Source: Candidatus Saccharimonadota bacterium (GTDB lineage: Archaea; Nanohalarchaeota; Nanosalinia; Nanosalinales; Nanosalinaceae). Taken from it: a stretch of 32,000 bases of DNA. Shown in pieces: positions 1-32,000 of this stretch (positions within the stretch are counted from its first letter, which is position 1; each line of letters starts with the position of its first letter). The translations under genes and the position numbers were made by a program. The stretch spans positions 300,001 through 332,000 of the forward strand of contig CP012986.1 of the NCBI GenBank assembly GCA_001761425.1, in the 5' to 3' direction. Under the pieces are notes generated by a model. The model was given only the letters and a program-made list of their open reading frames with translations. It ran no database searches and was not told where the DNA came from.

Positions 1-345
1 AGACCTGTAACATTTACAACAGAGCTTGACCAGGTCGCAGACCTGATAGGAACAAGCCCAGACCTCATAGAAGGAGATGGATACCTCGATGCAGAATGCG
101 CAGAGTTCCACGACCTTGAGCTAAACCAGACATACACCTACAGCCAGGAAACAATCACGGGAGAACACTCCGACCGAGTTAAAACTGTAGGATACGAAGA
201 ATACTGGGAAAGAGGCCAGCCACAGCCATACACCGAGGCCAACAGCTACGGAGAAAAAAACGAATCCGACGGAAGAATCCATCTTACGCCAGGCGATGAC
301 AACCGCCACGCAGAAATCATAATTATAAACCAGATAACAGGATAG
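1..345 (+). CDS. hypothetical acidic protein, C-terminal fragment (5' end lies outside the window)
   Basis: Frame 1 is open from base 1 to TAG at 343-345 (...TPGDDNRHAEIIIINQITG*). Composition is D/E-rich like neighbouring genes. It is absent from the ORF track because it has no in-window start. No family recognised. Confidence 0.45.
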   Translation, partial: RPVTFTTELDQVADLIGTSPDLIEGDGYLDAECAEFHDLELNQTYTYSQETITGEHSDRVKTVGYEEYWERGQPQPYTEANSYGEKNESDGRIHLTPGDDNRHAEIIIINQITG

Positions 346-364
346 ACAAAGGCCTTCCATTTAC

Positions 365-383
365 CTTTTTTCCTTTCTTTTTA
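365..383 (+). terminator. T-rich tract downstream of the truncated CDS (archaeal oligo-T terminator candidate)
   Basis: The sequence ccttttttcctttcttttt begins 20 nt after the stop at 345. Archaeal termination typically uses oligo-T runs. Confidence 0.35.
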
Positions 384-402
384 CTCGCAATTGAAGGAAA
401 AA

Positions 403-429
403 TGGCAGGGCAGGGATTTGAACTACCCG
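403..429 (-). other. degenerate copy of the 3' end of tRNA-Pro (T-loop plus acceptor-like sequence); not a functional tRNA
   Basis: tggcagggcagggatttgaact (403-424) matches the 3' end of the intact tRNA-Pro, tggcggggccgagatttgaact (467-488), at 19 of 22 positions. The T-stem cannot pair and there is no 5' half. Confidence 0.4.
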
Positions 430-466
430 AAAATCTCTGGAGATTTTCTAAAAAACGTATAAATCT

Positions 467-539
467 TGGCGGGGCCGAGATTTGAACTCGGGTCCGTACC
501 GCCCCGGGGTACGATGATAGTCCACTACACTACCCCGCC
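467..539 (-). tRNA. tRNA-Pro (anticodon GGG)
   Basis: The minus strand reads GGCGGGGTAGTGTAGTGGACTATCATCGTACCCCGGGGCGGTACGGACCCGAGTTCAAATCTCGGCCCCGCCA. It has a 7-bp acceptor stem, anticodon stem GTACC/GGTAC with loop CCGGGGC (G37), and T-arm CCGAG-TTCAAAT-CTCGG. CCA is not encoded. Confidence 0.85.
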
Positions 540-649
540 GAACTTAGATGATAAGTTCGAGCAATCGAAGCCATGCTATGCATCGCTTTCAGGAATACCC
601 TACAGACGAGGCCTTTGTCGTGAGAAATTTTAAATCTGAACTTGGGGGA

Positions 650-2545
650 TCAGTCCCTGATCTCGGATTTTCCCGGCGGTAAAGCTCTGATAATGTAGTC
701 CAGTTCGAGTTCCCTGTTTAAACGGGACTGAATTGTCTTCGCCAGATCCGACTTCTTTTCGTGTCCAGGCCTTAGAGATAGGTAGTTACCGCAGTGTTTC
801 TTCACTGCGGATTCAGGTCCGCACATCGGAACTTTGTGATCCTCTATCTCGTAGACTCCGATAGAGGCCTCGACTGACATATTTCTCATGTAGGTTCTGT
901 CCCCCCGGATTACGAAGGCGCCTTTCTGCAGGTACTCTCCTGACTCGGCCTCTTCGGTGACCTGTTCTGGGTCGACATAGTAGACGTCATCAGCGCCTAT
1001 GCCAGCCTTCCAGGTCTTTGCGAACGTGACAGCAGCCTTCGCAGCCTCCTCTCGCGTCGCCTCTCCACATTCCTGACCTTCCTTGACTACGACACTGGGC
1101 GCGCCGTCAAAGTCTGCGTGGAAGTAGAGATCGTTCTTCTCCATGTGTTTGTTGACCAGCATATCGTTGGTCTGAGCATCTCTACCGGCAAGAACCAGGT
1201 AGCCTTCGGAGGACTTGAACCAGCGGTATTTCTCGTACCATTCTTTTTCACGTTTCTCGGTCTTATCCTCCATCACTTCCTCAAGCTCTATATCCTCCTT
1301 CTTCAATTCCTCAAGCTCTTTTTCCGTCTCTTTCAAGGCCTCTTCGACTGAGTCAATCTTTGACTCGGAGTTCTTCGCCTTATCGTAGTACCGGGAAGCT
1401 ATAGCCTCCAGATCCTCGTCCAAAGTAAGTTTTATCTTCATCCCGTCAACTGAGACAGAGATAAACTCGTCCTGCTCATTCAGGGAATTAATGCGGTCCG
1501 TCATAGGCCTTTCTGACTCTTCAAGCATCTCCTCGGTCTCCTTCCAGCCGTGTTTCTCAACTCCTTTACTTGCTGCTTCCTGGATCTCCTCCAGAATCTG
1601 ATAGTTCTCATAGACCAGTTCGGCCTTTTCACGGTTCTGCTCCGCGGACTTTTTTAGGCCTTTCTTCTTCCGCTTCTGCTGTTCTAGTTTTCTTTCAATA
1701 CCTTCCTTTCTTTCTTTATAGGCCTTTTTCTTCTGTCTCTCCTCTTTCCTCTGCTCTTTTCTGTAGAAAAACTCGTCTAAGGCCTCTGAGAATTTTTCGA
1801 ATTCTTCGCTGTTGTATTTGTCGTAGGTCTGTAACGGGAACGGTGTCGCGCGCTCCATTCTTTCCCCGTCCTTGTAGAGGATTGGTTCTGGCTTGTCTGC
1901 TGATTCAAAGATTTTTCTGATCTCCTCTTCTGTCCTTTCTTTTTCTTCTCCGCTGAGACTTGAAATCTCCGTGTTTTTCTCGATCTCTGCCCGGGCGCAG
2001 ATTTCCTCTCCATACGTTCCTCCGAGGCTGAGGCCTGCTGCGATCTTTCGCACGATCTCTCCGTCTTCAAGGCCTTCGACAAATTTTTCCTGGCCTCTCG
2101 GGTCTTCGGTCGGCTCAGGATATCTGTATTTGTTTCCTACTCTGATCTCTCTGTCTGCCCATTCTTCCTCTCTCAGTGCTCCGATTATCTTGTCATCTTT
2201 CAGGAGAATAAAATTTCCTTTACCGAATATTTCACAGATCAAAGTATGTTCTCCGCTCTCTATCTCCAGTATGCGGTCAAATCCTTTCTGCCTAATACTG
2301 TCTACCCGTGAAAGATGCTTTCTGAGCTCCATGCAGAAACCCGGCGGCTTCATAGGATTGTCCCGCTTGTACTTTGAGATAAATGCGTGGTTCGTCCCGA
2401 TTATAAGCCGTTTCTTGCCTTCGCCGTGTACATAGATTTCCAGTGTTAGTTCCTGGCCTCTCTGGTAGACTTTCTGAATATGTCCTTCCTCAAGTTCCCT
2501 GAACTCGTCTTCCAGAATCGAGAGATCCAGGCTCGTAAGTTCCAT
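650..2545 (-). CDS. rqcH: NFACT-family ribosome quality control protein (RqcH/Tae2/FbpA-like, archaeal form)
   Basis: 631 aa. The N-terminus MELTSLDLSILEDEFRELEEGHIQKVYQ is typical of the NFACT-N domain. There is a central K/E coiled coil and a C-terminal NFACT-R (DUF814) motif: WFKSSEGYLVLAGRDAQTNDMLV...DLYFHADFDGAPSVVVK. Confidence 0.85.
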   Translation of the reverse strand: MELTSLDLSILEDEFRELEEGHIQKVYQRGQELTLEIYVHGEGKKRLIIGTNHAFISKYKRDNPMKPPGFCMELRKHLSRVDSIRQKGFDRILEIESGEHTLICEIFGKGNFILLKDDKIIGALREEEWADREIRVGNKYRYPEPTEDPRGQEKFVEGLEDGEIVRKIAAGLSLGGTYGEEICARAEIEKNTEISSLSGEEKERTEEEIRKIFESADKPEPILYKDGERMERATPFPLQTYDKYNSEEFEKFSEALDEFFYRKEQRKEERQKKKAYKERKEGIERKLEQQKRKKKGLKKSAEQNREKAELVYENYQILEEIQEAASKGVEKHGWKETEEMLEESERPMTDRINSLNEQDEFISVSVDGMKIKLTLDEDLEAIASRYYDKAKNSESKIDSVEEALKETEKELEELKKEDIELEEVMEDKTEKREKEWYEKYRWFKSSEGYLVLAGRDAQTNDMLVNKHMEKNDLYFHADFDGAPSVVVKEGQECGEATREEAAKAAVTFAKTWKAGIGADDVYYVDPEQVTEEAESGEYLQKGAFVIRGDRTYMRNMSVEASIGVYEIEDHKVPMCGPESAVKKHCGNYLSLRPGHEKKSDLAKTIQSRLNRELELDYIIRALPPGKSEIRD

Positions 2546-2736
2546 ACAAAGGCCTTGTGACGTGAAAAGTTAAAACCGGTGCCGGGGGTTCGGGATATTC
2601 GAACAGTTTCAACATGGAAGAGTTTATAATAAAGGCCTTCCAAAAAAGAATTACGCACGAGATATCTGGGGGAGAGGGAATTTTTACCCACAACATATAG
2701 TGGGTCTCCAAAATCATCTAGTCCCAGCTATACCCT

Positions 2737-2757
2737 GAAGGCCTGTTTCAGGCCTTC
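2737..2757. repeat. perfect 9-bp hairpin built from two AGGCCT copies (GAAGGCCTG-TTT-CAGGCCTTC)
   Basis: Read directly from the sequence. It lies in the divergent intergenic region between rqcH (-) and nrdA (+). Confidence 0.8.
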
Positions 2758-2782
2758 TCTGGTTTATCTGAGCTAGCCTCAG

Positions 2783-2790
2783 CTATATCT
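2783..2790 (+). promoter_or_regulatory. candidate TATA box for nrdA (leaderless or short-leader transcript)
   Basis: ctatatct is centred about 27 nt upstream of ATG 2813. The same spacing is seen upstream of dut, endA, the 18577 ORF and the initiator tRNA. Confidence 0.4.
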
Positions 2791-2812
2791 CTGTATAACG
2801 GTGTTATATAAG

Positions 2813-5185
2813 ATGTCAGAACAGAGGAATGTCAGCAAAAAATCGGGGCCTGAAAGCTCCAAAATCGCTCCAGAGAAAATTCTTGAAGAGGCCTATCAGG
2901 GTCTTGATCCAGAGATCGATAGGGAGGAACTGGTTTCCGAGGCGGGGAAGCAGCTTTATGCTTCTGCGTCTCTGGATGAGAAATTTGAGGCCTGTATCCA
3001 GGTGGCAACTTCTCATATAGATCGTGACCCTGAGATGAAGAAGGTAGCTGCCGATGTCTTTCTTCAGAGGTATTACCGGGAGGTGATGGGGGATTACAGT
3101 GAGGAAAGTTTCGAGGAGAAGTACAGAGCGAGCTTTGCGAAGAATATTCGGAGGATGGTTTCCGAGGAACTTCTGGATGAAAGGATGCTTGCCTATGATC
3201 TCGAACTCTTGGCCGGTAAACTAGTGCCGGAGCGTGATGAGCTTTTTGATTATATGGCACTGGATACCCTTTACCAGCGTTACTTCCTGAAAAAAGAAGA
3301 TGAAAGGCTGGAGTTGCCCCAGGTTTTCTGGATGCGCGTCGCTATGGGTGTGGCACTTCAGGAGCCTGTTGCGAACAGGCAGGAGAGAGCGACAGAGTTT
3401 TACGAGAAGCTCTCTCAATTGAAGTTTGTTCACTCAACGCCGACTCTTTTCCATGCCGGTACAACTCATCCACAGCTCTCTTCGTGTTATCTGACGACTG
3501 TGAAAGATGATCTGGAGCATATCTTCAAGTCCTACCAGGATCATGCACTGCTTTCGAAATGGAGTGGAGGCCTGGGAAACGACTGGACCAGTGTCAGAGC
3601 TGAGGGAGCGTGGATAAACTCGACCGGGGTCGAATCCACAGGAACAGTGCCGTTTCTTAAGATCTCTAACGATGTGACCCATGCGATTAACAGGAGCGGA
3701 AAGCGTAGAGGAGCTGCAGCTGCCTACCTTGAGGCCTGGCACCTGGATTTCGAGGATTTCCTGGATCTGAAACGCAACACAGGCGATGAACGCCGGAGAA
3801 CACATGATATGAACACGGCAGCCTGGGTGCCCGATCTTTTCATGAAGCGGGTTCAGGAAAACAAGGAATGGACTCTTTTCTCTCCAGATGAGGTACCGGA
3901 ACTTCACGATATCTACGGACAGGAGTTTGAGGAAAAGTACAGAGAGTACGAGGAGAAAGCGGAAAACGGCGAGCTTAGGCAGTACGAGAAAGTCGATGCG
4001 CAGGAGATGTGGCGTACCATGCTTACCAGACTCTTCGAAACAGGACATCCATGGATAACTTTCAAAGATCCATGTAACATCAGAAGCCCGCAGGATCACG
4101 CAGGAACAGTCCACTCCTCAAATCTGTGTACAGAGATCACGTTAAACACCAGCGAGGATGAAACCGCGGTATGTAATCTTGGCAGCGTTAATCTGGCGAA
4201 ACACGTCGATGAGGAAGGCCTCAAAGCTGATGAGCTGAAGGATACGGTTTCAACCGCGATTCGGATGCTGGACAACGTCGTAGACCTGTGTTTCTACCCA
4301 ACTGAGGAGGCGGAGAACTCGAATATGAAGCACAGGCCTATAGGCCTCGGAGTTATGGGTTTCCACGACGCATTGATCAGACAGGGTATTCCGATAGCTT
4401 CTGATAAGGCCCTGGAGTTTGCGGACATGTCTCAGGAGTTCATCTCCTACCATGCTATCATGAATTCTTCGAAGCTGGCGGAGGAGCGCGGAAGGTATGA
4501 ATCCTTTGAGGGAAGTAAGTGGGACCGCGATATTCTTCCCCAGGATTCTCTAGAGCTTCTGGAAGAAGAGCGAGGCCTTGAAACTCCTCTTCCAAAGGAA
4601 GAAAGCCTGGAATGGAGTCAGGTACGTCAGCATATCCAGGACAATGGTATGAGGAACTCTAACGTCATGGCTGTGGCCCCTACCGCGACTATCTCAACGA
4701 TCTCAGGTGTTTCTCCAAGCATCGAGCCTCGTTACAGCAATCTTTACGTCAAATCCAATATGAGCGGAGATTTCACGGTTATCAACGACTACCTGGTCAG
4801 TGATCTGAAGGATAAAGGCCTCTGGGATGAAAAAATGGTCGAAGAGATCAAGGCCCGGGACGGCTCGATCCAGGAGATCGGAAGGATTCCTGAGGAGATC
4901 AGGGAACTGCACAGAAGTGCTTTCGAGATAGATCCAAGGCATCAGATCAAGCTGACCGCTCACAGGATGCAGTGGATAGACCAGAGTGTTTCTCACAACG
5001 TATTCTTTCCTAGCACGGATGGAACAAAGCTTGACTCAGTCTACAGAACAGCGTGGAAATGGGGTCTGAAGACCACCTATTACCTGAGATCGCTCGGTGC
5101 TTCCCAGATAGAGAAATCAACTGTAGACATGGACAAGTACGGAAAGACCCAGAAGTCACGGGACGGAGGTGAGGCCGATGAGTGA
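2813..5185 (+). CDS. nrdA: ribonucleoside-diphosphate reductase, class I alpha (large) subunit
   Basis: Catalytic motifs are present: SSCYL, NLCTEITL, AVCNLGSVNL, PTATIS, KTTYYLRS. A class I beta subunit follows it. ATG 2813 (MSEQRN...) is preferred over the GTG at 2801 given in the ORF track. The protein ends without the usual C-terminal Cys pair (see findings). Confidence 0.9.
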   Translation: MSEQRNVSKKSGPESSKIAPEKILEEAYQGLDPEIDREELVSEAGKQLYASASLDEKFEACIQVATSHIDRDPEMKKVAADVFLQRYYREVMGDYSEESFEEKYRASFAKNIRRMVSEELLDERMLAYDLELLAGKLVPERDELFDYMALDTLYQRYFLKKEDERLELPQVFWMRVAMGVALQEPVANRQERATEFYEKLSQLKFVHSTPTLFHAGTTHPQLSSCYLTTVKDDLEHIFKSYQDHALLSKWSGGLGNDWTSVRAEGAWINSTGVESTGTVPFLKISNDVTHAINRSGKRRGAAAAYLEAWHLDFEDFLDLKRNTGDERRRTHDMNTAAWVPDLFMKRVQENKEWTLFSPDEVPELHDIYGQEFEEKYREYEEKAENGELRQYEKVDAQEMWRTMLTRLFETGHPWITFKDPCNIRSPQDHAGTVHSSNLCTEITLNTSEDETAVCNLGSVNLAKHVDEEGLKADELKDTVSTAIRMLDNVVDLCFYPTEEAENSNMKHRPIGLGVMGFHDALIRQGIPIASDKALEFADMSQEFISYHAIMNSSKLAEERGRYESFEGSKWDRDILPQDSLELLEEERGLETPLPKEESLEWSQVRQHIQDNGMRNSNVMAVAPTATISTISGVSPSIEPRYSNLYVKSNMSGDFTVINDYLVSDLKDKGLWDEKMVEEIKARDGSIQEIGRIPEEIRELHRSAFEIDPRHQIKLTAHRMQWIDQSVSHNVFFPSTDGTKLDSVYRTAWKWGLKTTYYLRSLGASQIEKSTVDMDKYGKTQKSRDGGEADE

Positions 5186-5330: not shown

Positions 5331-5336
5331 AGACGA

Positions 5337-5342
5337 TTTTTT
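5337..5342 (+). terminator. T6 run after the nrdA / tail ORF
   Basis: gattttttatg begins 7 nt after the stop at 5330. Confidence 0.3.
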
Positions 5343-6492: not shown

Positions 6493-6495
6493 ACT

Positions 6496-9197: not shown

Positions 9198-9707
9198 ATG
9201 GAAGTCAAAATCTTCATGGCACAGACGGTCAACGGAAAAATCGCCCGAGAAACCGGCGAAGAAGACTTCCTCTCGCCCAGGAACTGGCAGGAATTCAAAA
9301 AAATCGCGGAAAAAACAGGGGCCTTCACAGTCGGAAGAAAAACCTTTCAGGCAGTCAAAGAATGGGAGGACAAAGGATTCAAGGATATCAACGCGGAATG
9401 CATAGTCCTGTCACAGAAGGAAGGCCTGGAAGTTGGAGAAGGATTTATCAAGGTTTCAAGCCCGGAAAAAGCAGTAAAGCTCGCTGAAGAAAAAGGCCTG
9501 GACGCGTTACTTGTTACAGGCGGTGCATCTGTCAACTCATCTTTCATGGAAAAGAAAATGGTCGATGAACTGATTTTGGATATCGAACCCTATGTTCTCG
9601 GCGAAGGCCTTGATCTCTTCGCTCGAAGAAGCTTTGAGGGAGAACTGGGGCTTGAAGAGGTCAGAAAACTGGAAGAAGGTATAGTCCAGCTGCGTTATAG
9701 GCTTTAG
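9198..9707 (+). CDS. RibD C-terminal / dihydrofolate-reductase-like reductase domain protein
   Basis: The pattern KIFMAQTVNGKIA...FTVGRKTF...LLVTGGASVNSSFMEKKMVDELILDIEPYVLGEGLDLF matches the RibD_C (bifunctional deaminase-reductase C-terminal) fold. Confidence 0.65.
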   Translation: MEVKIFMAQTVNGKIARETGEEDFLSPRNWQEFKKIAEKTGAFTVGRKTFQAVKEWEDKGFKDINAECIVLSQKEGLEVGEGFIKVSSPEKAVKLAEEKGLDALLVTGGASVNSSFMEKKMVDELILDIEPYVLGEGLDLFARRSFEGELGLEEVRKLEEGIVQLRYRL

Positions 9708-9713
9708 GCCTTT

Positions 9714-12251
9714 TTATTCATCTAGTTCTATGCTGCGGACTTTTGATACTCCGTCTCTCATGGATACGCCGTAGGCTCTTTCTGCGTGCCTTACTGTGAT
9801 GTCGTTGTGGGATATTACGATGAACTGGTTGCCTTCAGCGTATTCTTTCAGGATTTCGCTTAGTTTCTTTGAGTTTGTGGTGTCCAGTGCTGCGTCTATT
9901 TCGTCCATGATGTAGAAAGGACTTTCCTCGTATTCGAGGATGGCGAAGACGAATGCGATCGCTGTCATTGTTTTTTCTCCGCCTGAAAGCGCTGTTATTA
10001 TGTGAGGGTCTTTGTTCGGCGGTGCTGCTCTGATTTTAAGGCCTTTGTTGATGTCGTCGTCTTCTAGGACTAGTTTTCCTGTTCCTCCGCCGAACAGTTT
10101 TTCGAATATTTCCGTGAAGCTGTTCTGAAGCTGTTTAAGCGTCTTCATGAACCTCTCTCGTTTCTCCTGTTCGATCTCCTGGATCATGTCTTCTATCTCC
10201 AGTTTTTCCTGTCTGATCTCGGATACCTGTTCCTTGAATTCGTCGTATTCTTCTTTTTTCTCCTTGTATTCTTCTATTGCACGCATGTTAACCGGGCCCA
10301 TGGAGTTTTGCTTCTTGACGATCTTTCTCTTCTTGGTCTTCAGTTCCTCCGGTGAGGAGTCAAGGCCTGTTAGCTCGTCTTCATCGAAATCGTATTCGGA
10401 TTGATCTTCTTTAACATTGTCAAGCTCAGCTTTCAGGTTGGCTTTTTTGCTTCCGACCTGATCTATCTTGGATTTGAACTTCTGTTTCTCGCTGTAAAGT
10501 TCCTGGTGCTCATCTCTCATGTCCTGGAGTTTTTCACGAATCTGTTTCTTTTCCTCTCTCAGTTCTTCGTCAGTTTCCTGTTCCTCCTCTTTTCTCTCCT
10601 TCATCTGTTTCAGTTCTGCGATGTCTTTCTGCAGATCTTCGATCTTGTCCTCAACCTCCTCTTTCTCCTTTTTCTTCGCTTCAGGGTCGAGGCTTTTCGA
10701 GAGGCTTTTACTGGAGTTGCCTTTCCTTTTCTTCTTTTTACCTCCGCTCATGGCGCCTCCACGACTCATAACATCTCCGTCCAGAGTCACAACCCGGACC
10801 CCGTCAATATCCTTTACGGAATCAAGATCCTCTGCTATAAGAGTGTCGCTGAAAACGTAACGGATCGCTTTATCAAACTTGGAATTGTTGTCCACAAGCT
10901 CTGAGGCAAAACCGATCACTCCTTTCTTTTTCTTCGCCATCTTCGACTTCGCACTTTTTGACCGGTCCTTAATCTTGTCCATAGGCAGCATTCTTGCTCG
11001 GCCGATGCTCTCACGCTTCAGGTAGTTGATCGCATCTGTAGCAGTGTTCCTGTCCTCTACAACTACATCGTCCATATGGCCTCCGGCAGCGGTCTCAATC
11101 GCTACGGCGAACCGTTCATCGACAGAGATCAAATCCTCGAATGCACCATGTATCCTGTCGTTATCAAGGCCTAGAACCGCTTTAACAGCTCGCTTCTTGT
11201 TCCCGCCTCCACGGGACTTCATCTTTTTCAGTTCTCCGATAGTCTCTTCCAGATCCTCTATCTTATCCCGCTTGTTCTCAATCTTTCCCTTCTTCTTCTC
11301 AATCCTGTTTTCCAGATGCTGGATATCACTTCCGCCCTGAGACTGTTTATCCTCTATCTCCTCGATACGATCCTGCTTCTCATCAATCCTCTCATTGATC
11401 TCCTCAAGCTCCTCTTCAAGCTCCTCGATCCTTTCACGTTTCTCCGAAGTATCAGTATTGATATTCGCAAGCTGGTTGGAAAGCGCACGCTTCCTGACCT
11501 CCAGAATAGAGGCCTCAAGCTTCTCCTTTCTCTCCTCTAGCTCCCGGTATTTCAGTGCGAGTTCTTTCTGCTCTTTCAGCTTGTCGACCTGTTCTTTCTT
11601 TTCGTTAAGTATAATTTCCTGTTCCTGTAACTTTTCCTCGACCTCTTCAAGCTCTTCTTCAGCTTCCTCCTTTTTCTCATCGAACTCTGCAACGCCTGAA
11701 AGCTCATCGATTACTTTCCTACGCTCCACATCGCTCTGTTCCACGATCTCTGTAACTTTCCCCTGACGTACAAAGTGGTATCCACCCGGATCAATGTTTG
11801 CCTTTCTCGCAATATCATCTATCTTCGAGGCCTTGCAGTTCGAACCCTGGAACTTGTACATCGAGGAACCGGCCTGGGTGATCTTTCGACCGACCTTGAT
11901 CTCGTCTGCCTCTTCCTCTTCTTCCAGAAATTCGTCGAAGACTCCAGAAGTATTGTCGAGACTCACAGTGACTTTTGCATAATCCGCCGGCTTCCTGCTC
12001 TCTCCACCGTTAAAGATCAGTTGCTGCATCTTCTCTGCACGGAGCTTTGAACTTCTGCGTCCGAAAACAAAACTCATCGCGTCAAGAACATTTGACTTAC
12101 CTGAACCGTTTTCCCCGACTATCGCTGTAAGGCCTTCGTAGAAAGGTACTGCGGTCTGTCTCTGAAAACTCTTGAAACCTTTAGATGTGACCTTGTTGAT
12201 CTTCGTCCCTGCTTCCTGACCTGTTTTCTGCTCTGTCTCTTGCTCGGTCAT
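9714..12251 (-). CDS. smc: SMC chromosome segregation ATPase, unusually short (845 aa from ATG 12251)
   Basis: Walker A is in KGFKSFQRQTAVPFYEGLTAIVGENGSGKSNVLDA. The hinge is IHGAFEDLISVDERFAVAIETAAGG...VVTLDGDVMSRGGAMSGG. Signature and Walker B are LSGGEKTMTAIAFVFAIL...FYIMDEIDAALD. The ORF-track start at 12308 adds 19 hydrophobic residues and is less likely. Confidence 0.85.
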   Translation of the reverse strand: MTEQETEQKTGQEAGTKINKVTSKGFKSFQRQTAVPFYEGLTAIVGENGSGKSNVLDAMSFVFGRRSSKLRAEKMQQLIFNGGESRKPADYAKVTVSLDNTSGVFDEFLEEEEEADEIKVGRKITQAGSSMYKFQGSNCKASKIDDIARKANIDPGGYHFVRQGKVTEIVEQSDVERRKVIDELSGVAEFDEKKEEAEEELEEVEEKLQEQEIILNEKKEQVDKLKEQKELALKYRELEERKEKLEASILEVRKRALSNQLANINTDTSEKRERIEELEEELEEINERIDEKQDRIEEIEDKQSQGGSDIQHLENRIEKKKGKIENKRDKIEDLEETIGELKKMKSRGGGNKKRAVKAVLGLDNDRIHGAFEDLISVDERFAVAIETAAGGHMDDVVVEDRNTATDAINYLKRESIGRARMLPMDKIKDRSKSAKSKMAKKKKGVIGFASELVDNNSKFDKAIRYVFSDTLIAEDLDSVKDIDGVRVVTLDGDVMSRGGAMSGGKKKKRKGNSSKSLSKSLDPEAKKKEKEEVEDKIEDLQKDIAELKQMKERKEEEQETDEELREEKKQIREKLQDMRDEHQELYSEKQKFKSKIDQVGSKKANLKAELDNVKEDQSEYDFDEDELTGLDSSPEELKTKKRKIVKKQNSMGPVNMRAIEEYKEKKEEYDEFKEQVSEIRQEKLEIEDMIQEIEQEKRERFMKTLKQLQNSFTEIFEKLFGGGTGKLVLEDDDINKGLKIRAAPPNKDPHIITALSGGEKTMTAIAFVFAILEYEESPFYIMDEIDAALDTTNSKKLSEILKEYAEGNQFIVISHNDITVRHAERAYGVSMRDGVSKVRSIELDE

Positions 12252-12906: not shown

Positions 12907-12924
12907 AGGCCTTTTCCAAGGCCT
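12907..12924. terminator. AGGCCT-tttcca-AGGCCT hairpin flanked by T runs, between convergent genes
   Basis: Two AGGCCT copies (12907-12912 and 12919-12924) can form a 6-bp stem. It sits between the stops of the hydrolase (12890) and aspS (12930). T-rich runs flank it on both strands. Confidence 0.45.
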
Positions 12925-12929: not shown

Positions 12930-14240
12930 TTATGGTTCGAGTCTGTCTGGGTCTCTTGGGAATAGGATTGCTTCTTTGATGTTGTCCAGTTCTGCGATTT
13001 TCTGGATCATCCTGTCGATTCCCAGGCCGTATCCTCCGTGTGGAGGCATTCCGAACTTGAATGCTTCAAGGTAGAACTGGAAGTTGGATTTGTCTACTTC
13101 CTGTTTTTCCATCCATTTTTCTAGTGTCTCAAGATCGTGCTGTCTCTGTCCTCCGCTTGAGAGTTCCTGGCCTTTGTAGATCAGGTCGAATTTTCTGCTT
13201 GCTACTTCGTCGTCTTCTACTTGTTGCATGTAGTAGAATTTTTCGCCTGGGTAACCGACTACGAAGAACGCAGGATGGCCTTTTTCCTCGAAGTATTCTC
13301 CGAGAAGTTTCTCTCCCTTGGTGTCGAGGTCGCCTTCGTCGTCCGGTATATGGTTGAACTCTTCTTCCAGGATTTCCAGTGCTCTGTCGAATTTGATCCT
13401 CGGGAATTCTTCCTCTGGAACTGTCAGATTGACGTCGAGAGTCTCAAGTTCATCAGCAGCTTCCTCCTTAACCTTCTTGAGGGTGTGTCTGAAGCTTTCT
13501 TCCTGGACGTCCATTACGTCGTGGTGGTCTTCGATGAAAGCGAGTTCTACGTCGAACATGTTGATCTCGGAGACGTGTCGGGATGTTGCGAACTCCTCTG
13601 CTCTGAAAGCTGTTCCGGTTTCGTAGACTTTGTCGAATCCGGCTGCCATCAGCATCTGCTTGTAAAGTTGTGGAGACTGGGAGAGAAAGGCCTCTTCATC
13701 GTAGTAGATTACCGGGAAGAGTTCTGCTCCGCCTTCTGCTCCTCCTTTGGAGATCAAAGGTGTATCGATCTCAATGTAGCCATCTTCGTCAAACCAGTTC
13801 TGCATGGCCTCCATCGCTTTGGTTTTCAGTGAGAAGATTGCGTGTATTTCCGGCTTTCTTAGGTCCATGAACCTGTTGTCCAGTCTTGTGGATAGGTCTG
13901 AATCAATATTCTTCGATACATCCATGGGTAAAGGAGTTTCCGCTTCTCCAATTATTTCCAGAGAGGTTGGCTGGATCTCCCTGTCGCCTGGAGCCTGATC
14001 GTTTTCCTCAACTATTCCTTCAACGTGTACAAGATCTTCCTTGCCTACATCCTGGGCTTTATTGAAAAGATCTTCGTCCTCGTCTTCCTTGAAAATTACC
14101 TGGATTTGTCCCTTTCTATCCCGCAGAATCACAAATGTGATACCTCCGAGATCTCTTATCTCATGCGCCCATCCCGCGACAGCGACTTCCTCCCCACTGT
14201 CACTGGATGTGACTTCGTCTGTGTAAGCTCTGTCTAACAT
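12930..14240 (-). CDS. aspS: aspartyl-tRNA synthetase, archaeal type
   Basis: 436 aa. The OB-fold N-terminus is [28 protein letters not shown]. Class II motifs are present: [35 protein letters not shown]. Confidence 0.9.
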
Positions 14241-16124: not shown

Positions 16125-16184
16125 TATGCAGATGGACCTTAATTAAGATTCCTGCAAAGAAGAGAAAAGGGAAAAATGAGTGTT

Positions 16185-19301: not shown

Positions 19302-19656
19302 ATGGTTAAACAAGGCGAGCCTCTTCCGAGTTTTGAAGTGGAAAACCATAGAGGTGAAACTGTGTCCTCAGAAAATATCGAAACTGCCTTGATCTATTTC
19401 TGTCAAAGATCTTAGATTTTATCGACTCGCAGAGAATCTCCGATTTTCGAGTACCCGGAAGCGGATACCCTGGGATGCATGGAGGAGGCCTGTAACTTCA
19501 GAGATAGTATATCCCGTCTTCAGAAATTCGGCTTTTTGAAAGAATCTGGTTTCAGAGAGAACAACTTTTTTGGTCAGAGAAGTCAGAGTCCTGAAAGTTT
19601 TCAGAAAAGTGGATCCTGGAAAACGTATTGGTGAGCTTCTTGATTATCTGAATTAG
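19302..19656 (+). pseudogene. bcp: decayed peroxiredoxin (Bcp/thiol peroxidase family) gene
   Basis: MVKQGEPLPSFEVENHRGETVSSENIETALIYF is followed by a 51-nt in-frame segment containing TAG (19413-15). Then comes YPEADTLGCMEEACNFRDSISRLQKFGF, the Bcp-type PxxxTxGCxxEAC active site. The remainder is far too short and changes frame before a C-terminal-like GELLDYLN*. Confidence 0.6.
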
Positions 19657-19659
19657 GCC

Positions 19660-20025
19660 TTAGAACTTTATGCTCTTTCTCATCCCGGCTCTCGAAGGAT
19701 CGGGACTGACAAGCTCGTAGGCATTGTTTTTGACCTCTGCGAACTTCCCGCATTCAGGACATTTGGTATAGCCTTTCTTGCTGTCAACTAATTGTTCACG
19801 GTAACCGCAGGAACACTCAACTCTGGTATCCAGTTCCTCGACGTGTAAATTAATCCTTTCAAGAATAGTCCCACGTGTGAAATGTCCGAACAAGGCCTCA
19901 AACTGCTCCGGCTCACACAGATGATTGTTGACACGTACATGGGCCTCTCCGTTCGTCGAAAGCCTTGACAGGTCCTGCATCAAATTCACGAGTACTGTCC
20001 CTACCTTCTGCATAACTTCGTCCAC
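19660..20025 (-). CDS. HypA/HybF-like zinc-ribbon metallochaperone homolog
   Basis: 121 aa. HypA-like layout: RVNNHLCEPEQFEALFGHFTRGTILERINLHVEE followed by the CSC...CPEC zinc site. The N-terminus is MDE rather than the MHE nickel-binding motif. Confidence 0.5.
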   Translation of the reverse strand: MDEVMQKVGTVLVNLMQDLSRLSTNGEAHVRVNNHLCEPEQFEALFGHFTRGTILERINLHVEELDTRVECSCGYREQLVDSKKGYTKCPECGKFAEVKNNAYELVSPDPSRAGMRKSIKF

Positions 20026-20807: not shown

Positions 20808-21464
20808 ATGAAAGTTCTGGGCTTGGATGAAGCGGGTAGGGGTCCTGTGATCGGTTCGATGTTTATCGGCGGTTTTATGGCAGAGGAAATTGATGTCGAG
20901 CTGGAGGATCTTGACGTAAAGGATTCGAAGAAACTTTCCGATAGTAAGAGGGAAGGCCTTCGCTCGGAACTGGGAAGGTACGGTGATGTGTTCCTGAAGG
21001 AGGTTACTGCCTCTGAAGTCGATGAACTTAGAGAGGTCATGAGTCTGAACGAGATCGAGATCCAGGCCTTTGCCGATGTTATTGAGAGGGCGGATCCGGA
21101 TAAAGTTATTATTGATCTCCCGGAGCCTGATGCGGACAGGTTTATCGCAAAGCTGAAACGCGAGCTTCCGGGGAAGTTCTCGGATCGTGAGTTCGTTGCA
21201 GAGCACGAGGCAGATGATGAGTTCCCGATTGTTTCTGCGGCTTCGATCGCTGCAAAGTCTGCGAGAGAGAACCATATCGAAGAACTTCATCAGAAGTATG
21301 GCTACGATTTCAAATCTGGTTATCCACATGACAAGCCGACGATAAAGTTCCTGGAGACATACCTGGGTGAGAAAGGTGAGATGCCTCCTGAGACCAGGAT
21401 GTCATGGAGCACTGCTGAACGTATCGTGAAAGAGAGTTCGCAGAAAGGCCTTGAAGATTTCTAG
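20808..21464 (+). CDS. rnhB: ribonuclease HII
   Basis: MKVLGLDEAGRGPVIGSMFIGG carries the DEAGRG catalytic motif, with a downstream HEADDEFPIVSAASIAAK. ATG 20808 is preferred to the ORF-track start at 20763. Confidence 0.85.
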   Translation: MKVLGLDEAGRGPVIGSMFIGGFMAEEIDVELEDLDVKDSKKLSDSKREGLRSELGRYGDVFLKEVTASEVDELREVMSLNEIEIQAFADVIERADPDKVIIDLPEPDADRFIAKLKRELPGKFSDREFVAEHEADDEFPIVSAASIAAKSARENHIEELHQKYGYDFKSGYPHDKPTIKFLETYLGEKGEMPPETRMSWSTAERIVKESSQKGLEDF

Positions 21465-21512: not shown

Positions 21513-22052
21513 ATGATAGAGGCCTCCTTGGTCGATTCCCAGGTTAAGATATGGGATGAAGACGATGCTGATGAGATCCACGATGAGAAATACTACGGCA
21601 AGAAGATGGAACAAGGAGAGCTTTTGCTTTCTATGTCGGAAGCTCTGCATCTGGTAGACAGAGATGAGATCGTTGTCAAAGACGATGATCAGGAAATGAG
21701 CAGGGAGGAGGCCTTCGAAAAGTTCTGTTCTCTCGACGAAGAGTTTGCTCAGAAGTTCCAGGTTTACAGCGATCTCCGTGAAAGAGGTTATATCGTGAAA
21801 AGCGGTTTCAAGTTCGGTGCTCATTTTAGGGTCTATCCGAGAGGAGTTAATCCCTATGTTGACGGGCCAAAAGATAATAAACAGCATACTCAGTGGGTTG
21901 TACATGCTGTTTCTGAAAACAAGACGATGAGTTTCCAGGAGATGTCACGTGCAGTCCGTTTAGCTAACAATATCCGCGCAACAATGCTTTGGGGCGTAGT
22001 GGACTCTGAAAACGGTGTAACTTACTACGAAGTCGATCACGTCAACCCGTGA
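21513..22052 (+). CDS. endA: tRNA-splicing endonuclease (short, homotetramer-sized form)
   Basis: 179 aa. YSDLRERGYIVKSGFKFGAHFRVYPRG...HTQWVVHAV matches the EndA catalytic C-terminal domain. Its size resembles the alpha4-type enzymes. Confidence 0.85.
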   Translation: MIEASLVDSQVKIWDEDDADEIHDEKYYGKKMEQGELLLSMSEALHLVDRDEIVVKDDDQEMSREEAFEKFCSLDEEFAQKFQVYSDLRERGYIVKSGFKFGAHFRVYPRGVNPYVDGPKDNKQHTQWVVHAVSENKTMSFQEMSRAVRLANNIRATMLWGVVDSENGVTYYEVDHVNP

Positions 22053-25159: not shown

Positions 25160-25165
25160 ACCTGT

Positions 25166-25502: not shown

Positions 25503-25524
25503 GAGATAGAAGAAGAAAAGGCCT

Positions 25525-28675: not shown

Positions 28676-28744
28676 AAAACTACAGATACAGATTTTCTAT
28701 CTTCCGAAAGTTAAAAAACAGTTGCCTCACCATAGAGAGATATG

Positions 28745-28809
28745 GTCGCTAGAGGCCTCCATAATTCGGAAAATACACTGAAGGCCTTAGGGTTTAGCGA
28801 CAGCTTTTT
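28745..28809 (+). terminator. long imperfect hairpin (GTCGCTA..AGGCCT / AGGCCT..TAGCGAC) followed by a T5 run, downstream of pgk
   Basis: GTCGCTA 28745-51 pairs with TAGCGAC 28795-801. AGGCCT 28753-58 pairs with AGGCCT 28782-87. The T5 run is at 28805-09. Confidence 0.4.
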
Positions 28810-28979
28810 CTATAACTTTATGTTCTAAGAAGCAGACCGTTCCGGTTTGCTTTGTCACTTCCAACAGGTGTCTTCTATGTTTAACACACAGGACTATACC
28901 CATGGTACATCAGGTACGCAAGGACAGCGTGAAAACCTTCAGAAGCCTTCTGGAGAGCCAGGGCCTCAAATACTGATCA

Positions 28980-30119
28980 TTGATGATAGGAACAGCACCT
29001 GAATTTGAACAGCTCTACGAACAGTCAAAAACAGGTGATATAGAAGGCCTTATAGACCAGCACTACGACAGCCTGGGCCTTGAAGATATCGATGCCCAAT
29101 GGATAAGGGAAGCGTACGAGGATGCCGGAGTAATCGACTCTGAGGACGATTATACGTTTTTGATTCCCCGTCAACAGCCTGCCTCGACAGTAGAGCAGAT
29201 ATCGATGGCACAGGTGGCAGAGATGCTCGGAGATCAACTTCAGGAAGACGGGGAGATCGGAGAATATAGTGTAGTCGGAGCGCCACTGAGTGACAAAATG
29301 TATGGCAGGAACGCGGAGAAGAGAGGATACGCCATGCCTGTCGTCGCCACAGATGAAGGCCTCAGGCAGGCACAGATCGCCGATATCAGGGACGGCTACA
29401 GCATTGGCTCACACCGGATCAATTGCGGTGAAGGCAGCCAGCAGGTCGTAGATGAGGAACTTGGAGGTGATCCAGAGGCCTCTGATCTGAGAGAAATGCA
29501 TGACAGCCTTGAGAATCCTATCGTCGAAACCCGCGGTGACTTTACAGACATCCAGAGAAGCATGATAGAGGAGATGATCGACCACGGTCAGGAGCCGGAG
29601 ATACTGGGGTTTGAGGACTCTGACGGCAAGATAGTCGGTCTGAAGTACGACGCGGAGACAGGTAGATACGAGTCTCTGGATGACAGGAGAGATATTTCGC
29701 TGTCAATGGACGAGGCCTCGAAACAAGGTATCCTCACCCCTGAGACTAACTACGAGGCACTGATTTTCCCATCCGCACTCCATGAAGAGATCGGCTATAT
29801 GCTGAGGGGCCTGGAAAACGGAAAGTTCAGGACGGAAAACACCGATGAATTGGAGAGACAGGCAGAACTGGAAGGCCTTGACACCTTCCCGTTCATAGAC
29901 GTCTCCTCACGTAAAGGTTACGATCAGGCGGTGCCTAGAGAAGTGATGAAAGAGCTTAAAGATACAAAGTTCGGCAGATCCTCAAGCCTGAAGAATAGCG
30001 GGATAGCTGTCAACATCTACCCTTCCCAGAGAAAGAGACAGGAGATCAAGGCCTCGAATGTCGAAGCGGACAGGTTCCAAGATGTCACAGAGCAAATCCT
30101 TAACATGACCCTCCGGTGA
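28980..30119 (+). CDS. hypothetical acidic protein (379 aa), no recognisable domain
   Basis: Long ORF with proteome-typical acidic composition. The likely start is ATG 28983. It ends 9 nt before the next gene, so it is probably co-transcribed. Confidence 0.55.
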   Translation: MMIGTAPEFEQLYEQSKTGDIEGLIDQHYDSLGLEDIDAQWIREAYEDAGVIDSEDDYTFLIPRQQPASTVEQISMAQVAEMLGDQLQEDGEIGEYSVVGAPLSDKMYGRNAEKRGYAMPVVATDEGLRQAQIADIRDGYSIGSHRINCGEGSQQVVDEELGGDPEASDLREMHDSLENPIVETRGDFTDIQRSMIEEMIDHGQEPEILGFEDSDGKIVGLKYDAETGRYESLDDRRDISLSMDEASKQGILTPETNYEALIFPSALHEEIGYMLRGLENGKFRTENTDELERQAELEGLDTFPFIDVSSRKGYDQAVPREVMKELKDTKFGRSSSLKNSGIAVNIYPSQRKRQEIKASNVEADRFQDVTEQILNMTLR

Positions 30120-30128
30120 AGAATAAAC

Positions 30129-31049
30129 ATGAAAGAAGAGATCATCGAAAGAGCCTCAGAACTGGCGGATCTGGCGCCGAGACAGCTCGAAAACGAAAGA
30201 AAAGCAGCAGACTTGATCGAAAAAGAGGTAGAGGCCTTTGGTCCAGAGATTCAGAGATTCCAGATCCTGGTACCGGATTTCCAGGACTGGGGTCTGAAAG
30301 CTGATGGCGAGGAGATCGAATGCCTTCCTTCAGGCCTTGAATCAGGGAAGATAAGGTCCAAAGCTCTTGTGAACTCTATACTGAACGGTCAGGGTTCGAT
30401 GAACAGGCCTAACATCAGTTTCAATCCTTATGCGGAAGGTATCTCGGTTCCAAATTTCTACGAGGCTCCTTCCGTCGCTATTAGTCCTGAAGACGTTGAG
30501 AAAGTGGTTGAGGCGAACGAGGTCGAAGGATATCTTGAGGTCGAATGGGAGAGCCACCAGTCCAGGAATATACTGGTCGGGAACTCTGAGGATCCTGACA
30601 GGATAGTCATGACCCATTACGACAGTGTATGGGGAGGATTCATCGACAACGGCTTCACAGTCAGTCTTCTTATCCAGCTGCTGGATGAACTCGATCTGGA
30701 AGAAAACCTGATTGTCTTTGCCGGAGCGGAGGAGATCTCACAGGAAAGCCCGTACCACTGCTACGGATACAGAAGATTCGAGGACGAATACATCAAACAG
30801 ATCCAGGAAGCGGACGAAATCTTCCTCGCCGACTCGCTAGGCAGAAACACCCAGAAAGTCATAAAGCAACCAGAAATAGTGGAAAAAGCCATAGTCCTCA
30901 ACAGGCCTGGCTACAGGGAAAAAGTCAGGTTCGTCGCTTCAGAGTACCACGAAGTCCTCGACATCTATCACTCACCGGAAGACACGAAACAGGCCCTAAA
31001 CAGCTACGAAGAAGCACTCGAACTCGTCAGAAAAGAACTAGGCCTCTGA
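30129..31049 (+). CDS. M28-family zinc aminopeptidase-like protein
   Basis: IVMTHYDSVWGGFIDNGFTVSLL, VFAGAEEISQES and IYHSPEDT line up with M28 metal-ligand motifs (HxDS, DN, EE, H..D). Confidence 0.6.
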   Translation: MKEEIIERASELADLAPRQLENERKAADLIEKEVEAFGPEIQRFQILVPDFQDWGLKADGEEIECLPSGLESGKIRSKALVNSILNGQGSMNRPNISFNPYAEGISVPNFYEAPSVAISPEDVEKVVEANEVEGYLEVEWESHQSRNILVGNSEDPDRIVMTHYDSVWGGFIDNGFTVSLLIQLLDELDLEENLIVFAGAEEISQESPYHCYGYRRFEDEYIKQIQEADEIFLADSLGRNTQKVIKQPEIVEKAIVLNRPGYREKVRFVASEYHEVLDIYHSPEDTKQALNSYEEALELVRKELGL

Positions 31050-31405
31050 ACCTCGCCCCAGAAACAGTTTTAAATTTTCTATTCCAGTTTCCTCCTATGG
31101 CTCAGAAGGGGGGATATTTTTGGAAGAATCTTTCCCGAAAAGAAAACGTTGACCGGGCAACAGGCCTCAAAGCCTGATGAAAATAATTCTTTGAGCCACA
31201 GCTTTCTCCAGATCTCTTCTGTAAGAAACGTTTCATGGCAGAGCTATCAATAAACGTTTCTACGGTTCAAGAATACTTCAATTGTTCTCAAAAGTTTTCC
31301 AGCTCCTGCTATATCGACTTGAAGGCCTGAAAGGCCCTTATGTTATTTAAAATTTTCTGACGTATATGTTGATGTGATCAAAGATGAGCACATCCGCTAA
31401 TTTGG

Positions 31406-32000
31406 GTGGACGTTTTTGGAATAGAGGACGTCCCGCAGTTGCTGGAAGGAGACGAGCTTGAACAGACTCACGAATCCTTCCAGCAACAGGTAAAAGATAT
31501 AGTTCAAAATCCTTCTAGATACGATAACCCAGAGGCCTTGAAAGCCGGTTTCGAAATGGAGTATACTCTACTCGACGGAAGCAACGGACAGGCCTCGGAA
31601 CAGGAACGTGACAGAATCAAGGAACGTGCTCCAGAAACTCTGGACTCTGAGCTTGCTGCATCAGTTATTGAGGCGAGGACAGATCCTGTGGTCCCTGAGT
31701 CTCTCGGAGATCTGGAGAAAGAGATGAGGGAGAAAGAGGCCTTGACCGCTGATTTTGCGGCTGAGGAAGGATTTGATCTACTCAGGTATGGTACAAATCC
31801 TTTTCCGACTGTCGAGGAGTTTGAGAGAAGTGGCGGAGAAGGCTCGCGTTATGACGTGTTTGCTTCCTTCCTGGATGAGAACAGGAACGACGATATGGTG
31901 ACCTCCAGCTTTGGGGAGAAAGAAAGTTTCGATCCACGTGATATCCATTACTCGGGTATGATCGCTTCTACCCAGACCAATCTCCAGGCCGGAGGCCTTC
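31406..32000 (+). CDS. GCS2-family carboxylate-amine ligase / glutamate-cysteine ligase-like protein (3' end outside the window)
   Basis: The frame is open from 31388 to the window end. GFEMEYTLLD and ELAASVIEARTDP resemble the GCS2 (YbdK/GshA-type) N-terminal motifs. The start is uncertain: GTG 31406 or TTG 31439, with no in-frame ATG. Confidence 0.5.
   Translation, partial: MDVFGIEDVPQLLEGDELEQTHESFQQQVKDIVQNPSRYDNPEALKAGFEMEYTLLDGSNGQASEQERDRIKERAPETLDSELAASVIEARTDPVVPESLGDLEKEMREKEALTADFAAEEGFDLLRYGTNPFPTVEEFERSGGEGSRYDVFASFLDENRNDDMVTSSFGEKESFDPRDIHYSGMIASTQTNLQAGGL

Follow-up and report, generated by a model that had tools for sequence, protein, structure and literature searches.

The DNA analyzed here, a stretch of 32,000 bases that we call the window, belongs to Nanohaloarchaea archaeon SG9, a DPANN archaeon from halite. 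It matches, at 100% identity, a segment of a 1.125-Mb contig in JGI metagenome 3300010222 and a Logan contig of run SRR2630167, and NCBI assigns its AspRS to SG9, which Crits-Christoph et al. described. Its genes are archaeal housekeeping genes: they encode NFACT, class I ribonucleotide reductase (RNR), ScpA, ScpB and SMC, AspRS, a second class II aminoacyl-tRNA synthetase, dCTP deaminase, RNase HII, a tRNA-splicing endonuclease (EndA) and PGK, and they are accompanied by three tRNA genes, one of which carries a long intron. Scattered over the genes of both strands and the spacers between them are 133 exact copies of the palindromic hexamer AGGCCT, about one per 240 bp. This word, its distribution among relatives and the forces that may maintain it are the subject of our analysis.

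Together with two flanks, the SG9 DNA that we examined amounts to ~52 kb, less than 5% of a genome of at least 1.1 Mb. Relatives are represented by syntenic loci around AspRS, at most 21 kb per relative, taken from one genome per species and from metagenomes and assemblies. They are denoted by labels beginning with L; L011 is the closed genome of Nanosalina sp. VS9-1, and L013/L168 are Ca. Nanosalina sp. J07AB43 and a contig 98.5% identical to it. Codon alignments covered up to 15 orthologous genes from genomes rich and poor in the motif, and a pooled word comparison set 90 kb of motif-rich DNA against 144 kb of motif-poor DNA.

The number of AGGCCT copies in the window far exceeds expectation. 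One hundred dinucleotide-preserving shuffles yielded 8.59 ± 3.03 copies, with a maximum of 17, and Markov models of order 0, 1 and 2 predict 6.9, 8.1 and 21 copies, respectively; the ratio of observed to expected copies (O/E) is 16.4. AGGCCT ranks first among the hexamers of the window, and the runners-up (AAGGCC, GGCCTT, GGCCTC and GAGGCC) all overlap it. There are 201 GGCC cores, 133 of them (66%) flanked by A and T, and each other NGGCCN word is present in 0 to 12 copies. These exact counts bear out a preliminary description of this DNA, which had put the number of copies at ~130 and the share of GGCC cores flanked by A and T at ~70%. That description had also proposed a z-score against a Markov model of maximal order. 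The excess is seen at orders 0 to 2, but the order-4 (maximal) model expects 128 copies and gives no significant z-score. The latter test is uninformative and cannot refute the excess, because the sub-words AGGCC and GGCCT are almost all the motif itself.

The bases next to the hexamer show a weak preference, for A or G at -1 and for T or C at +1. Further out the flanks are near background, so that the unit is the bare hexamer and no part of a longer repeat. Copies in the window are spaced 8 to 1002 bp apart (coefficient of variation 0.8) and evenly modulo 3, and the two SG9 flanks outside the window hold 3.4–4.7 copies per kb. We rejected a dispersed repeat family (REP, MITE, CRISPR or tandem array) or mobile element, there being neither an extended core beyond ±1 nor a regular head-to-tail spacing. 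Several other palindromes are avoided in the window: TTGCAA (0 copies, 7.5 expected), CTCGAG (2, 17.5 expected), GAGCTC (2, 17 expected), CTTAAG (2, 10 expected) and CTAG (40, 118 expected). The avoided set differs from one nanohaloarchaeal locus to another, as is to be expected where restriction pressures vary. For GATATC there is a mild excess (~3-fold) in the window and in L005 and L007.

In the 24 coding sequences (CDSs) of the window we shuffled synonymous codons within each gene, keeping the protein sequence and the codon usage. The CDSs contain 95 copies, as compared with 13.8 ± 3.2 after shuffling (maximum 25, z ~25). All three frames are used: 11 copies read AGG-CCT (Arg-Pro), 38 read nAG-GCC-Tnn ([EKQ]A[SLFYCW]) and 46 read nnA-GGC-CTn (xGL). 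Intergenic DNA is denser still. By the initial gene calls it holds 36 copies where 0.85 are expected from its own composition, that is, 6.6 per kb against 3.6 per kb in CDSs. Window positions 1–345 and 31406–32000, however, are coding according to the genes called in the flanking loci, and by our own arithmetic the revised densities are ~32 copies in 4.5 kb of intergenic DNA (7.1 per kb) and 99 copies in 27.5 kb of coding DNA (3.6 per kb); counting these ends as coding makes the contrast stronger. The same pattern is found over 73 genes of five motif-rich loci, with 6.5–7 copies per kb in intergenic DNA and 3.3–3.6 per kb in CDSs. AGGCCT is enriched at the DNA level, regardless of reading frame, strand or coding status. 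The preliminary description had noted copies in all three frames and on both strands and had argued for selection on the DNA word rather than on codons; the codon shuffle and the intergenic comparison, which it had named as checks, were both positive and settle this point in its favor.

We defined as permissive those positions that encode Arg-Pro, [Lys/Glu/Gln]-Ala-[codon starting with T] or [codon ending in A]-Gly-Leu. SG9 fills 95 of its 123 permissive positions (77%) with AGGCCT and four other motif-rich genomes fill 71–92%, whereas eight motif-poor relatives use 18 of 157 (11%). From the odds ratio of ~26 we infer a scaled per-site advantage, or conversion bias, of ~ln(26), about 3.3, which is above typical codon-usage selection.

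Among relatives the trait is unevenly distributed. The O/E of AGGCCT is 11–16 in SG9, L003, L011, L012, L014, L037, L038, L163, L164/L185 and L179. It is ~0–2 in about 17 further loci of nanohaloarchaea, among them that of Ca. Nanohalobium constans, and ~1 in most haloarchaeal loci sampled. The tally is about 11 sampled nanohaloarchaeal lineages with the trait versus about 17 without it. No substitute hyper-abundant word was found in the motif-poor nanohaloarchaeal loci, where the maximum O/E was 3–5. L013/L168 are intermediate, with an O/E of 3.2–3.6, 37–43% of GGCC cores inside the motif and ~21% of permissive positions used, the copies being mostly at positions other than those of SG9. This could be a lineage in the course of gaining or losing the trait.

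A bootstrapped neighbour-joining tree of five proteins (2,262 ungapped residues) groups motif-poor L009 with motif-rich L011 and L014 (100% bootstrap), and motif-poor N. constans with motif-rich SG9 and L012 (80% bootstrap). Since rich and poor genomes are mixed in two supported clades, the trait has been gained or lost several times. This patchy distribution suggests a mobile gene for a protein that reads AGGCCT; repeated gain and loss is the pattern typical of mobile restriction-modification (R-M) genes (PMC10609329). L164 (rich) and L004 (poor) score alike for AspRS, and we considered them as a natural experiment but set the pair aside: their nucleotide identity is only 70%, and L164 lies in the L011/L014 clade. 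L004 (JBLGBK010000002.1) is titled as a Colwellia polaris metagenome-assembled genome, yet it encodes nanohaloarchaeal AspRS, SMC, ScpA/B, NFACT and dCTP deaminase in the gene order of other nanohaloarchaeal loci, and so looks like a mislabelled bin.

In two motif-poor loci GGCC itself is nearly missing. L040 (GCA_022729235.1, 1-21311; 48.7% G+C) has 8 copies in 21 kb and L166 (SL_4KL_010_BRINEDRAFT_10000092; 38.3% G+C) has a single copy in 21 kb; GGCC counts are normal in L006, the sister of L040. The near-total lack of GGCC suggests a GGCC-specific restriction in the lineages of L040 and L166.

AGGCCT copies are held in place over evolutionary time. When motif-rich genomes are compared with each other, synonymous third positions are ~50% identical, and a generic hexamer matches in 12–25% of cases, or 22–34% where the encoded residues are conserved, whereas AGGCCT is kept in place in 42–76% of cases, or 78–100% with residues conserved. 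In motif-poor genomes the positions of SG9 copies read AGGCCT in only 0–13% of cases. Conservation at synonymous positions of orthologs and persistence in relatives were two further checks raised in the preliminary description, and on both counts its proposal held: copies are kept well above the generic baseline in motif-rich relatives and are missing from motif-poor ones. Likewise, SG9 and L038, which are 92.8% identical, conserve 35 of 37 copies against a 70% baseline (p = 2e-4), and the two sequences differ at 2.1% of positions within copies, at 7.7% in the 6-nt flanks of the copies and at 6.6% in the remainder. Five differences fall within copies, three of them C/T at the first C (AGGTCT twice, AGACCT once). 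Two of the five events could be polarized, and one of the C/T changes is a T-to-C gain; we abandoned a mutation spectrum from this pair, five events being too few. In distant motif-rich genomes shared positions may be convergent or inherited, because ~77% saturation makes sharing likely anyway. Two copies illustrate the conservation:

10039..10044, SMC gene: copy at Lys-Gly-Leu (AAA-GGC-CTn), a synonymous codon choice; SMC alignment column 3911; present in 5/5 motif-rich genomes and in 0 motif-poor genomes.
13688..13693, AspRS gene (minus strand): the sole copy in this gene, at Glu-Ala-Phe; AspRS alignment column 625; kept in 5/5 motif-rich genomes.

At SMC column 3911 the motif-poor genomes encode the same KGL with aggctt, agggct, gggact, aggttt or aggact, and at AspRS column 625 their EAF is written aagcct, aggctt, aagctt or aggcat. 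AspRS (12930-14240, minus strand) is the window gene with the lowest AGGCCT density, 1 copy in 1.3 kb. The SG9 protein is 58–72% identical to the AspRS of Halobacteria (Halorussus, Haladaptatus, Halorubrum) and about as close to these as to the AspRS of many other nanohaloarchaea; this suggests that the gene was transferred long ago between the two groups, nanohaloarchaea and haloarchaea.

The codon alignments further show that the pressure for AGGCCT has forced amino-acid replacements in conserved proteins. Three such copies lie in the window:

11167..11172, SMC gene: copy encoding Leu-Gly-Leu where relatives have Leu-Ser-Leu/Met (SMC column 2783).
21064..21069, RNase HII gene: copy encoding Gln-Ala-Phe where relatives have Lys-Gly-Phe (RNaseHII column 271).
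21520..21525, EndA gene: copy encoding Glu-Ala-Ser where relatives have Glu-Gly-Val (EndA column 124).

At SMC column 2783, LGL together with AGGCCT is found in SG9 and L012 only, and the rest have LSL, LSM, LKM, LNM or LQL. L012 has further copies of this kind, in AspRS (KAS for HVT/HVE, QAS for EEN/EET and KAF for TAF), in ScpA (EAF for QQF) and in NFACT (KAW for KTW), and the dCTP deaminase of L011 has QAY for EGY/QGY. In our per-site table many lineage-specific copies arise by replacing residues that are otherwise invariant. The tripeptide [KEQ]-A-[FLSYCW] occurs 6.1 times per 1000 residues in motif-rich and 3.3 times in motif-poor orthologs, a ratio of ~1.85 (z ~3.8 by our own arithmetic). 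That the trait is lineage-specific and patchy, stands near saturation and overrides amino-acid conservation was not visible to the preliminary description.

In the pooled DNA AGGCCT is 15-fold enriched in motif-rich over motif-poor genomes. The half-sites AGGCCN/NGGCCT occur at 1.0–2.4 times their motif-poor frequency, variants at inner positions at 0.5–1.0 times, and GGCC cores with both flanks wrong at 0.2–0.46 times. With outer variants up and inner variants and bare cores down, deviations concentrate on the outer bases, a bias to which codon constraints probably contribute. The C-to-T neighbours are undepleted (AGGTCT/AGACCT at 0.79 and AGGCTT/AAGCCT at 1.01 of the motif-poor frequency, and likewise in the window), so there is no footprint of very-short-patch (VSP) repair. 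Among words depleted in motif-rich genomes nothing stands out as a consumed precursor. Close pairs of copies are scarce, with 6 gaps below 15 bp where 18.7 are expected and 18 below 30 bp where 36.4 are expected, as expected if a second copy near an existing one adds nothing.

Copies also gather at the ends of genes. In the motif-rich loci a copy overlaps the stop codon, or lies at most 5 nt past it, in 23 of 99 genes, as compared with 4.5 ± 2.1 when the same number of copies is placed randomly within the same non-coding DNA (P < 0.0005). A copy can take its initial one or two bases from the stop codon (TAG-GCCT, TAA-GGCCT, TGA-GGCCT), and because the palindrome yields a stop on both strands (TAGGCCTA, TAAGGCCTTA, TGAGGCCTCA), convergent genes share one copy. 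The association is in part geometric; 15 of 25 stop-associated cases lie 0–5 nt beyond the stop without overlapping it, and geometry leaves these unaccounted for. The preliminary description had pointed to copies touching stop codons, and those at 9706, 19655 and 31040 are real. The spacer and gene-end copies of the window are as follows:

2546..2800: dense spacer of 255 bp with 4 copies, bordered by the NFACT and RNR large-subunit genes, which are divergent.
2739..2755: pair of copies 11 bp apart (AGGCCTGTTTCAGGCCT), upstream of the RNR large-subunit gene.
9706..9711: copy in the 6 bp that separate the convergent DHFR-like and SMC genes, overlapping the TAG stop of the DHFR-like gene (tataggctt TAG GCCTTTTTA).
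12907..12924: pair of copies 12 bp apart (AGGCCTTTTCCAAGGCCT), within the 39 bp that separate the convergent Ser-hydrolase and AspRS genes.
19655..19660: copy at the end of the minus-strand HypA-like gene, overlapping its TAA stop (TAA GGCCT); the arrangement is kept in L038.
25519..25524: copy at the end of the minus-strand class-II aminoacyl-tRNA synthetase gene, directly after its TAG stop.
31040: copy one base short of a TGA stop.

The arrangement at 9706 recurs at convergent gene pairs of L003, L011, L014 and L037. On one strand, the paired palindromes at 12907..12924 could pair with each other as a hairpin.

Other features of the window are as follows. The intron-bearing tRNA gene (19050-19238, minus strand) was found with Rfam (42.5 bits), and its span of 189 nt implies the long intron; the ARAGORN output lacks this tRNA. 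The gene for the tRNA-splicing endonuclease (21513-22052) is 2.3 kb away from it. Window positions 2801-6492, 9198-9707 and 17909-18427, and positions 14326-21896 of L041, form a nucleotide-metabolism neighbourhood that includes both RNR subunits, a DHFR-like protein, dCTP deaminase, an HD hydrolase, a thymidylate kinase/dNK-like protein, two NUDIX proteins, SHMT and thymidylate synthase. Between scpB and scpA of SG9 lies a gene (7305-8312, plus strand) for a 335-aa protein without a Pfam match; no homologue of the protein was found in the related loci, in which scpA and scpB are adjacent. Two tandem genes (14337-17846, minus strand) encode proteins of 592 and 553 aa with the CWB2 cell-wall-binding domain. 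These proteins diverge fast, being 32–47% identical in relatives, and are missing from L037.

A word-level pressure that creates and protects copies, and that switches between sister lineages, requires a protein that reads AGGCCT. The explanation that we favor, and to which we give an even chance, is a horizontally mobile reader of AGGCCT, plausibly a StuI-type methyltransferase, that acts together with a bias in repair, recombination or uptake. Such a lineage-specific reader would let alleles with the word beat alleles without it. Most plausibly it would be a DNA methyltransferase with StuI specificity, which may be an orphan or belong to an R-M system and whose methyl mark would bias a downstream process. 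This process may be mismatch or heteroduplex repair guided by the methylated strand (Elhai's ratchet); alternatively, marked DNA may be preferentially taken up and recombined. Biased fixation would then convert near-cognate sequences to AGGCCT and shield existing copies from loss, and once the determinant is lost the word would decay to chance frequency in that lineage. AGGCCT is a true enzyme recognition site, as StuI-type systems methylate AgGCcT in Alcanivorax (PMC12128166). The GGCC counts in L040 and L166 show that nanohaloarchaea differ in the restriction-type pressure on the GGCC core, which we count in favor of this mechanism.

Several points weigh against this mechanism. A host genome normally avoids, and does not accumulate, the sites that its R-M systems recognize, and the StuI site is here 16-fold over-represented, the reverse of site avoidance. 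Pfam searches of the window open reading frames (ORFs) and of non-syntenic ORFs of motif-rich loci, along with the gene tables of the SG9 flanks and of relatives, revealed no gene for a DNA methyltransferase, restriction endonuclease or Vsr-type protein in the ~52 kb of SG9 or in the related loci; with so small a part of the SG9 genome covered, the missing methyltransferase is weak evidence. Methylation is invisible in sequence data, and the VSP signature is missing. The persistent orphan methyltransferases known from archaea recognize sites of 4–5 bp, and AGGCCT is not among their specificities (PMC10609329). Moreover, the conservation of copies fits organism-level selection for function equally well as biased repair. 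Organism-level selection is what Xu et al. (2018) concluded for HIP1, a highly iterated palindrome (HIP) of cyanobacteria (PMC5861425).

Two related ideas were dropped. Restriction at GGCC combined with protection of AGGCCT only was rejected, as half-sites are undepleted and new copies arise from sequences without GGCC. A search of IMG/VR with three clustered copies gave no AGGCCT-dense virus among the matches listed, only chance matches, tandem repeats and unrelated contexts. Of the contigs seen there, L146 (IMGVR_UViG_2595698529_000001, 23982-35847) is filed as viral, but it looks eukaryotic from its telomere-like CCCTAA repeats and from a 73-bp tandem array that includes AGGCCTAGGCCT. L043 (IMGVR_UViG_3300029432_000018, 1-3639) is a viral contig of 36% G+C with 13 AGGCCT in 3.6 kb, mostly in AAGGCCTTAA-like words.

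Foremost among the alternatives, though we regard it as unlikely, is a DNA uptake or transfer signal: the machinery of the episymbiont would prefer DNA with AGGCCT and recombination would spread the word, methylation being unnecessary. Enrichment of copies in spacers and directly past stops (23 of 99 genes against 4.5 ± 2.1) is consistent with this, as are the skew of coding copies to certain frames and common tripeptides, the measurable alteration of protein sequences and the depletion of close pairs. Several of these features are shared by the uptake signal sequences (USS) of Pasteurellaceae and the DNA uptake sequences (DUS) of Neisseriaceae, known from the Haemophilus and Neisseria literature, which have accumulated genome-wide by drive, are enriched after genes, constrain proteins and are spaced over-evenly. 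USS and DUS differ from AGGCCT in being asymmetric words of 9–12 nt tied to a known competence receptor; AGGCCT shows their enrichment downstream of genes and in intergenic DNA but lacks an asymmetric 9–12-nt core. Known uptake sequences are also family-wide, whereas AGGCCT is patchy between sisters, and 4 copies per kb is several times the density of known uptake sequences. We know of no competence system in nanohaloarchaea, and to our knowledge neither competence nor DNA exchange has been shown in DPANN archaea, which speaks against an uptake signal. On the other side, the density of AGGCCT in the sampled haloarchaeal loci is ~15–40 times lower (0.05–0.7 against ~4 per kb), and as haloarchaea are the known hosts of nanohaloarchaea, the word could tell self from the DNA of such neighbours. 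Recent work now proposes HIP1 as an uptake sequence, with a transformation gain that depends on methylation and a correlation with type IV secretion genes. Giant surface proteins of nanohaloarchaea contain VirB4/TraG-like ATPase domains (PMC10266531).

It is rather improbable that AGGCCT is the binding site of an abundant chromosome-organizing or genome-maintenance protein (a nucleoid-associated protein, an SMC-loading factor, or a priming or replication factor), with organism-level selection keeping about one site per 250 bp. Copies are positionally conserved like functional sites, the depletion of close pairs suggests diminishing returns from neighbours, and on similar grounds Xu et al. favored a nucleoid-structure role for HIP1 (PMC5861425). 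Yet thousands of copies that each override amino-acid conservation are hard to square with a weak per-site benefit, sister lineages cope without AGGCCT or a replacement word, and no candidate protein has been identified.

VSP-type repair acting alone, in which an m5C methyltransferase and a T:G mismatch endonuclease restore C, as Dcm and Vsr do at CCWGG in E. coli, is most improbable. Three of the five SG9/L038 differences are C/T at the first C, one of them polarized as a T-to-C gain, but five events are too few for a mutation spectrum. The neighbours that deamination would produce are undepleted (0.79, 1.01), and many gains need transversions or multiple changes. Moreover, VSP repair gives only a modest over-representation, not a 16-fold one.

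There is next to no chance that the excess simply follows from base composition, codon usage or dipeptide preference, or from a longer repeat or mobile element dispersed over the DNA. The contexts seen most often, GAA-GGC-CTn and GAG-GCC-Tnn, do consist of codons that are frequent in an acidic proteome, but such an origin is refuted by the synonymous shuffling (13.8 against 95 observed), by intergenic DNA being the most enriched class, by relatives of similar G+C content and proteome with an O/E near 1, by flanks that are random past ±1, and by recurrence of the pattern in independent assemblies, one of them a closed genome.

In its behaviour AGGCCT is best read, by analogy, as an archaeal counterpart of the cyanobacterial HIPs, that is, HIP1 and the alternate HIPs. 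Four of six listed HIP features are found: it is the top-ranking palindrome with an enrichment of at least ~15-fold, it occurs in all frames and in non-coding DNA, it is conserved in orthologs, and its deviations fall on the outer bases. The remaining two are a matching methyltransferase and a quasi-periodicity of 10–90 kb, a scale to be set against the ~50 kb available here. Like the alternate HIPs (for instance GGCGCC in Calothrix PCC 7103; Elhai 2015, PMC4390886), AGGCCT is a G+C-rich palindromic hexamer with an O/E of ~15, confined to certain lineages whose relatives lack it, present in coding and non-coding DNA and deviating on the outer bases, where HIP1 deviations likewise concentrate (Elhai, PMC4390886). 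It differs from them in belonging to Archaea (a DPANN episymbiont), in being a different word (the StuI site), in occurring in several nanohaloarchaeal clades rather than one strain, and in its density, ~3,700–4,200 per Mb against 500–2,500 per Mb. For each of the alternate HIP hexamers the same genome has a methyltransferase of matching specificity (PMC4390886), whereas AGGCCT is known here from sequence only. HIP1 (GCGATCGC; Xu, Lawrence & Durand 2018, PMC5861425) shares with AGGCCT its hyper-abundance, 15–300-fold in the case of HIP1, the conservation of copies within and between ORFs above background, and the lack of evidence for a role at the peptide level or in gene regulation. Unlike AGGCCT, HIP1 is eight bases long and found almost throughout its phylum; two known orphan methyltransferases recognize it, and it shows a 10–90-kb periodicity.

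The StuI-type R-M system of Alcanivorax borkumensis SK2 acts on the identical word, which is there cytosine-methylated on both strands (PMC12128166). That genome has 1,674 AGGCCT sites, far sparser than the ~4 per kb found here, and the system is an ordinary defence system. A 2023 REBASE survey of archaeal R-M lists no AGGCCT-specific enzyme; its sole nanohaloarchaeal genome belongs to the class Nanohalobia (PMC10609329). Full-text searches of the literature produced no report tying AGGCCT or GGCC abundance to nanohaloarchaea, nor any of AGGCCT over-representation in any genome, in agreement with the preliminary description, which knew of no such element for this hexamer and had named HIP1, DNA uptake sequences and methyltransferase-linked motifs as the closest precedents. 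We found no earlier report of the phenomenon in archaea.

HIP1 has been without an agreed function for three decades, partly because it is nearly universal in its phylum and so offers few natural contrasts. AGGCCT offers such a contrast, in another domain of life and with another word, with rich and poor genomes interleaved on the tree and genomes of ~1 Mb; a closed motif-rich genome exists, that of Nanosalina VS9-1. Because AGGCCT distorts codon usage and amino-acid composition, it will mislead compositional binning, the detection of horizontal gene transfer and substitution models. Conversely, AGGCCT per kb is a cheap marker by which contigs and mobile elements in hypersaline metagenomes can be assigned to motif-rich nanohaloarchaea.

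As a tentative proposal, which we would sooner bet against than for, AGGCCT may be a self-marking word: a single transferable reader, probably a methyltransferase, would signal the choice of strand or allele in repair, recombination or import. Perhaps, and with the same reserve, this signal rewrites thousands of positions of a ~1 Mb genome, conserved residues included, and is repeatedly gained and lost within the phylum. If so, the motif-rich nanohaloarchaea and their motif-poor sisters would form a small, cultivable system in which a comparison of gene content could reveal the mechanism of HIPs, and HIP-type genome rewriting would be a general prokaryotic phenomenon that extends beyond the cyanobacteria.

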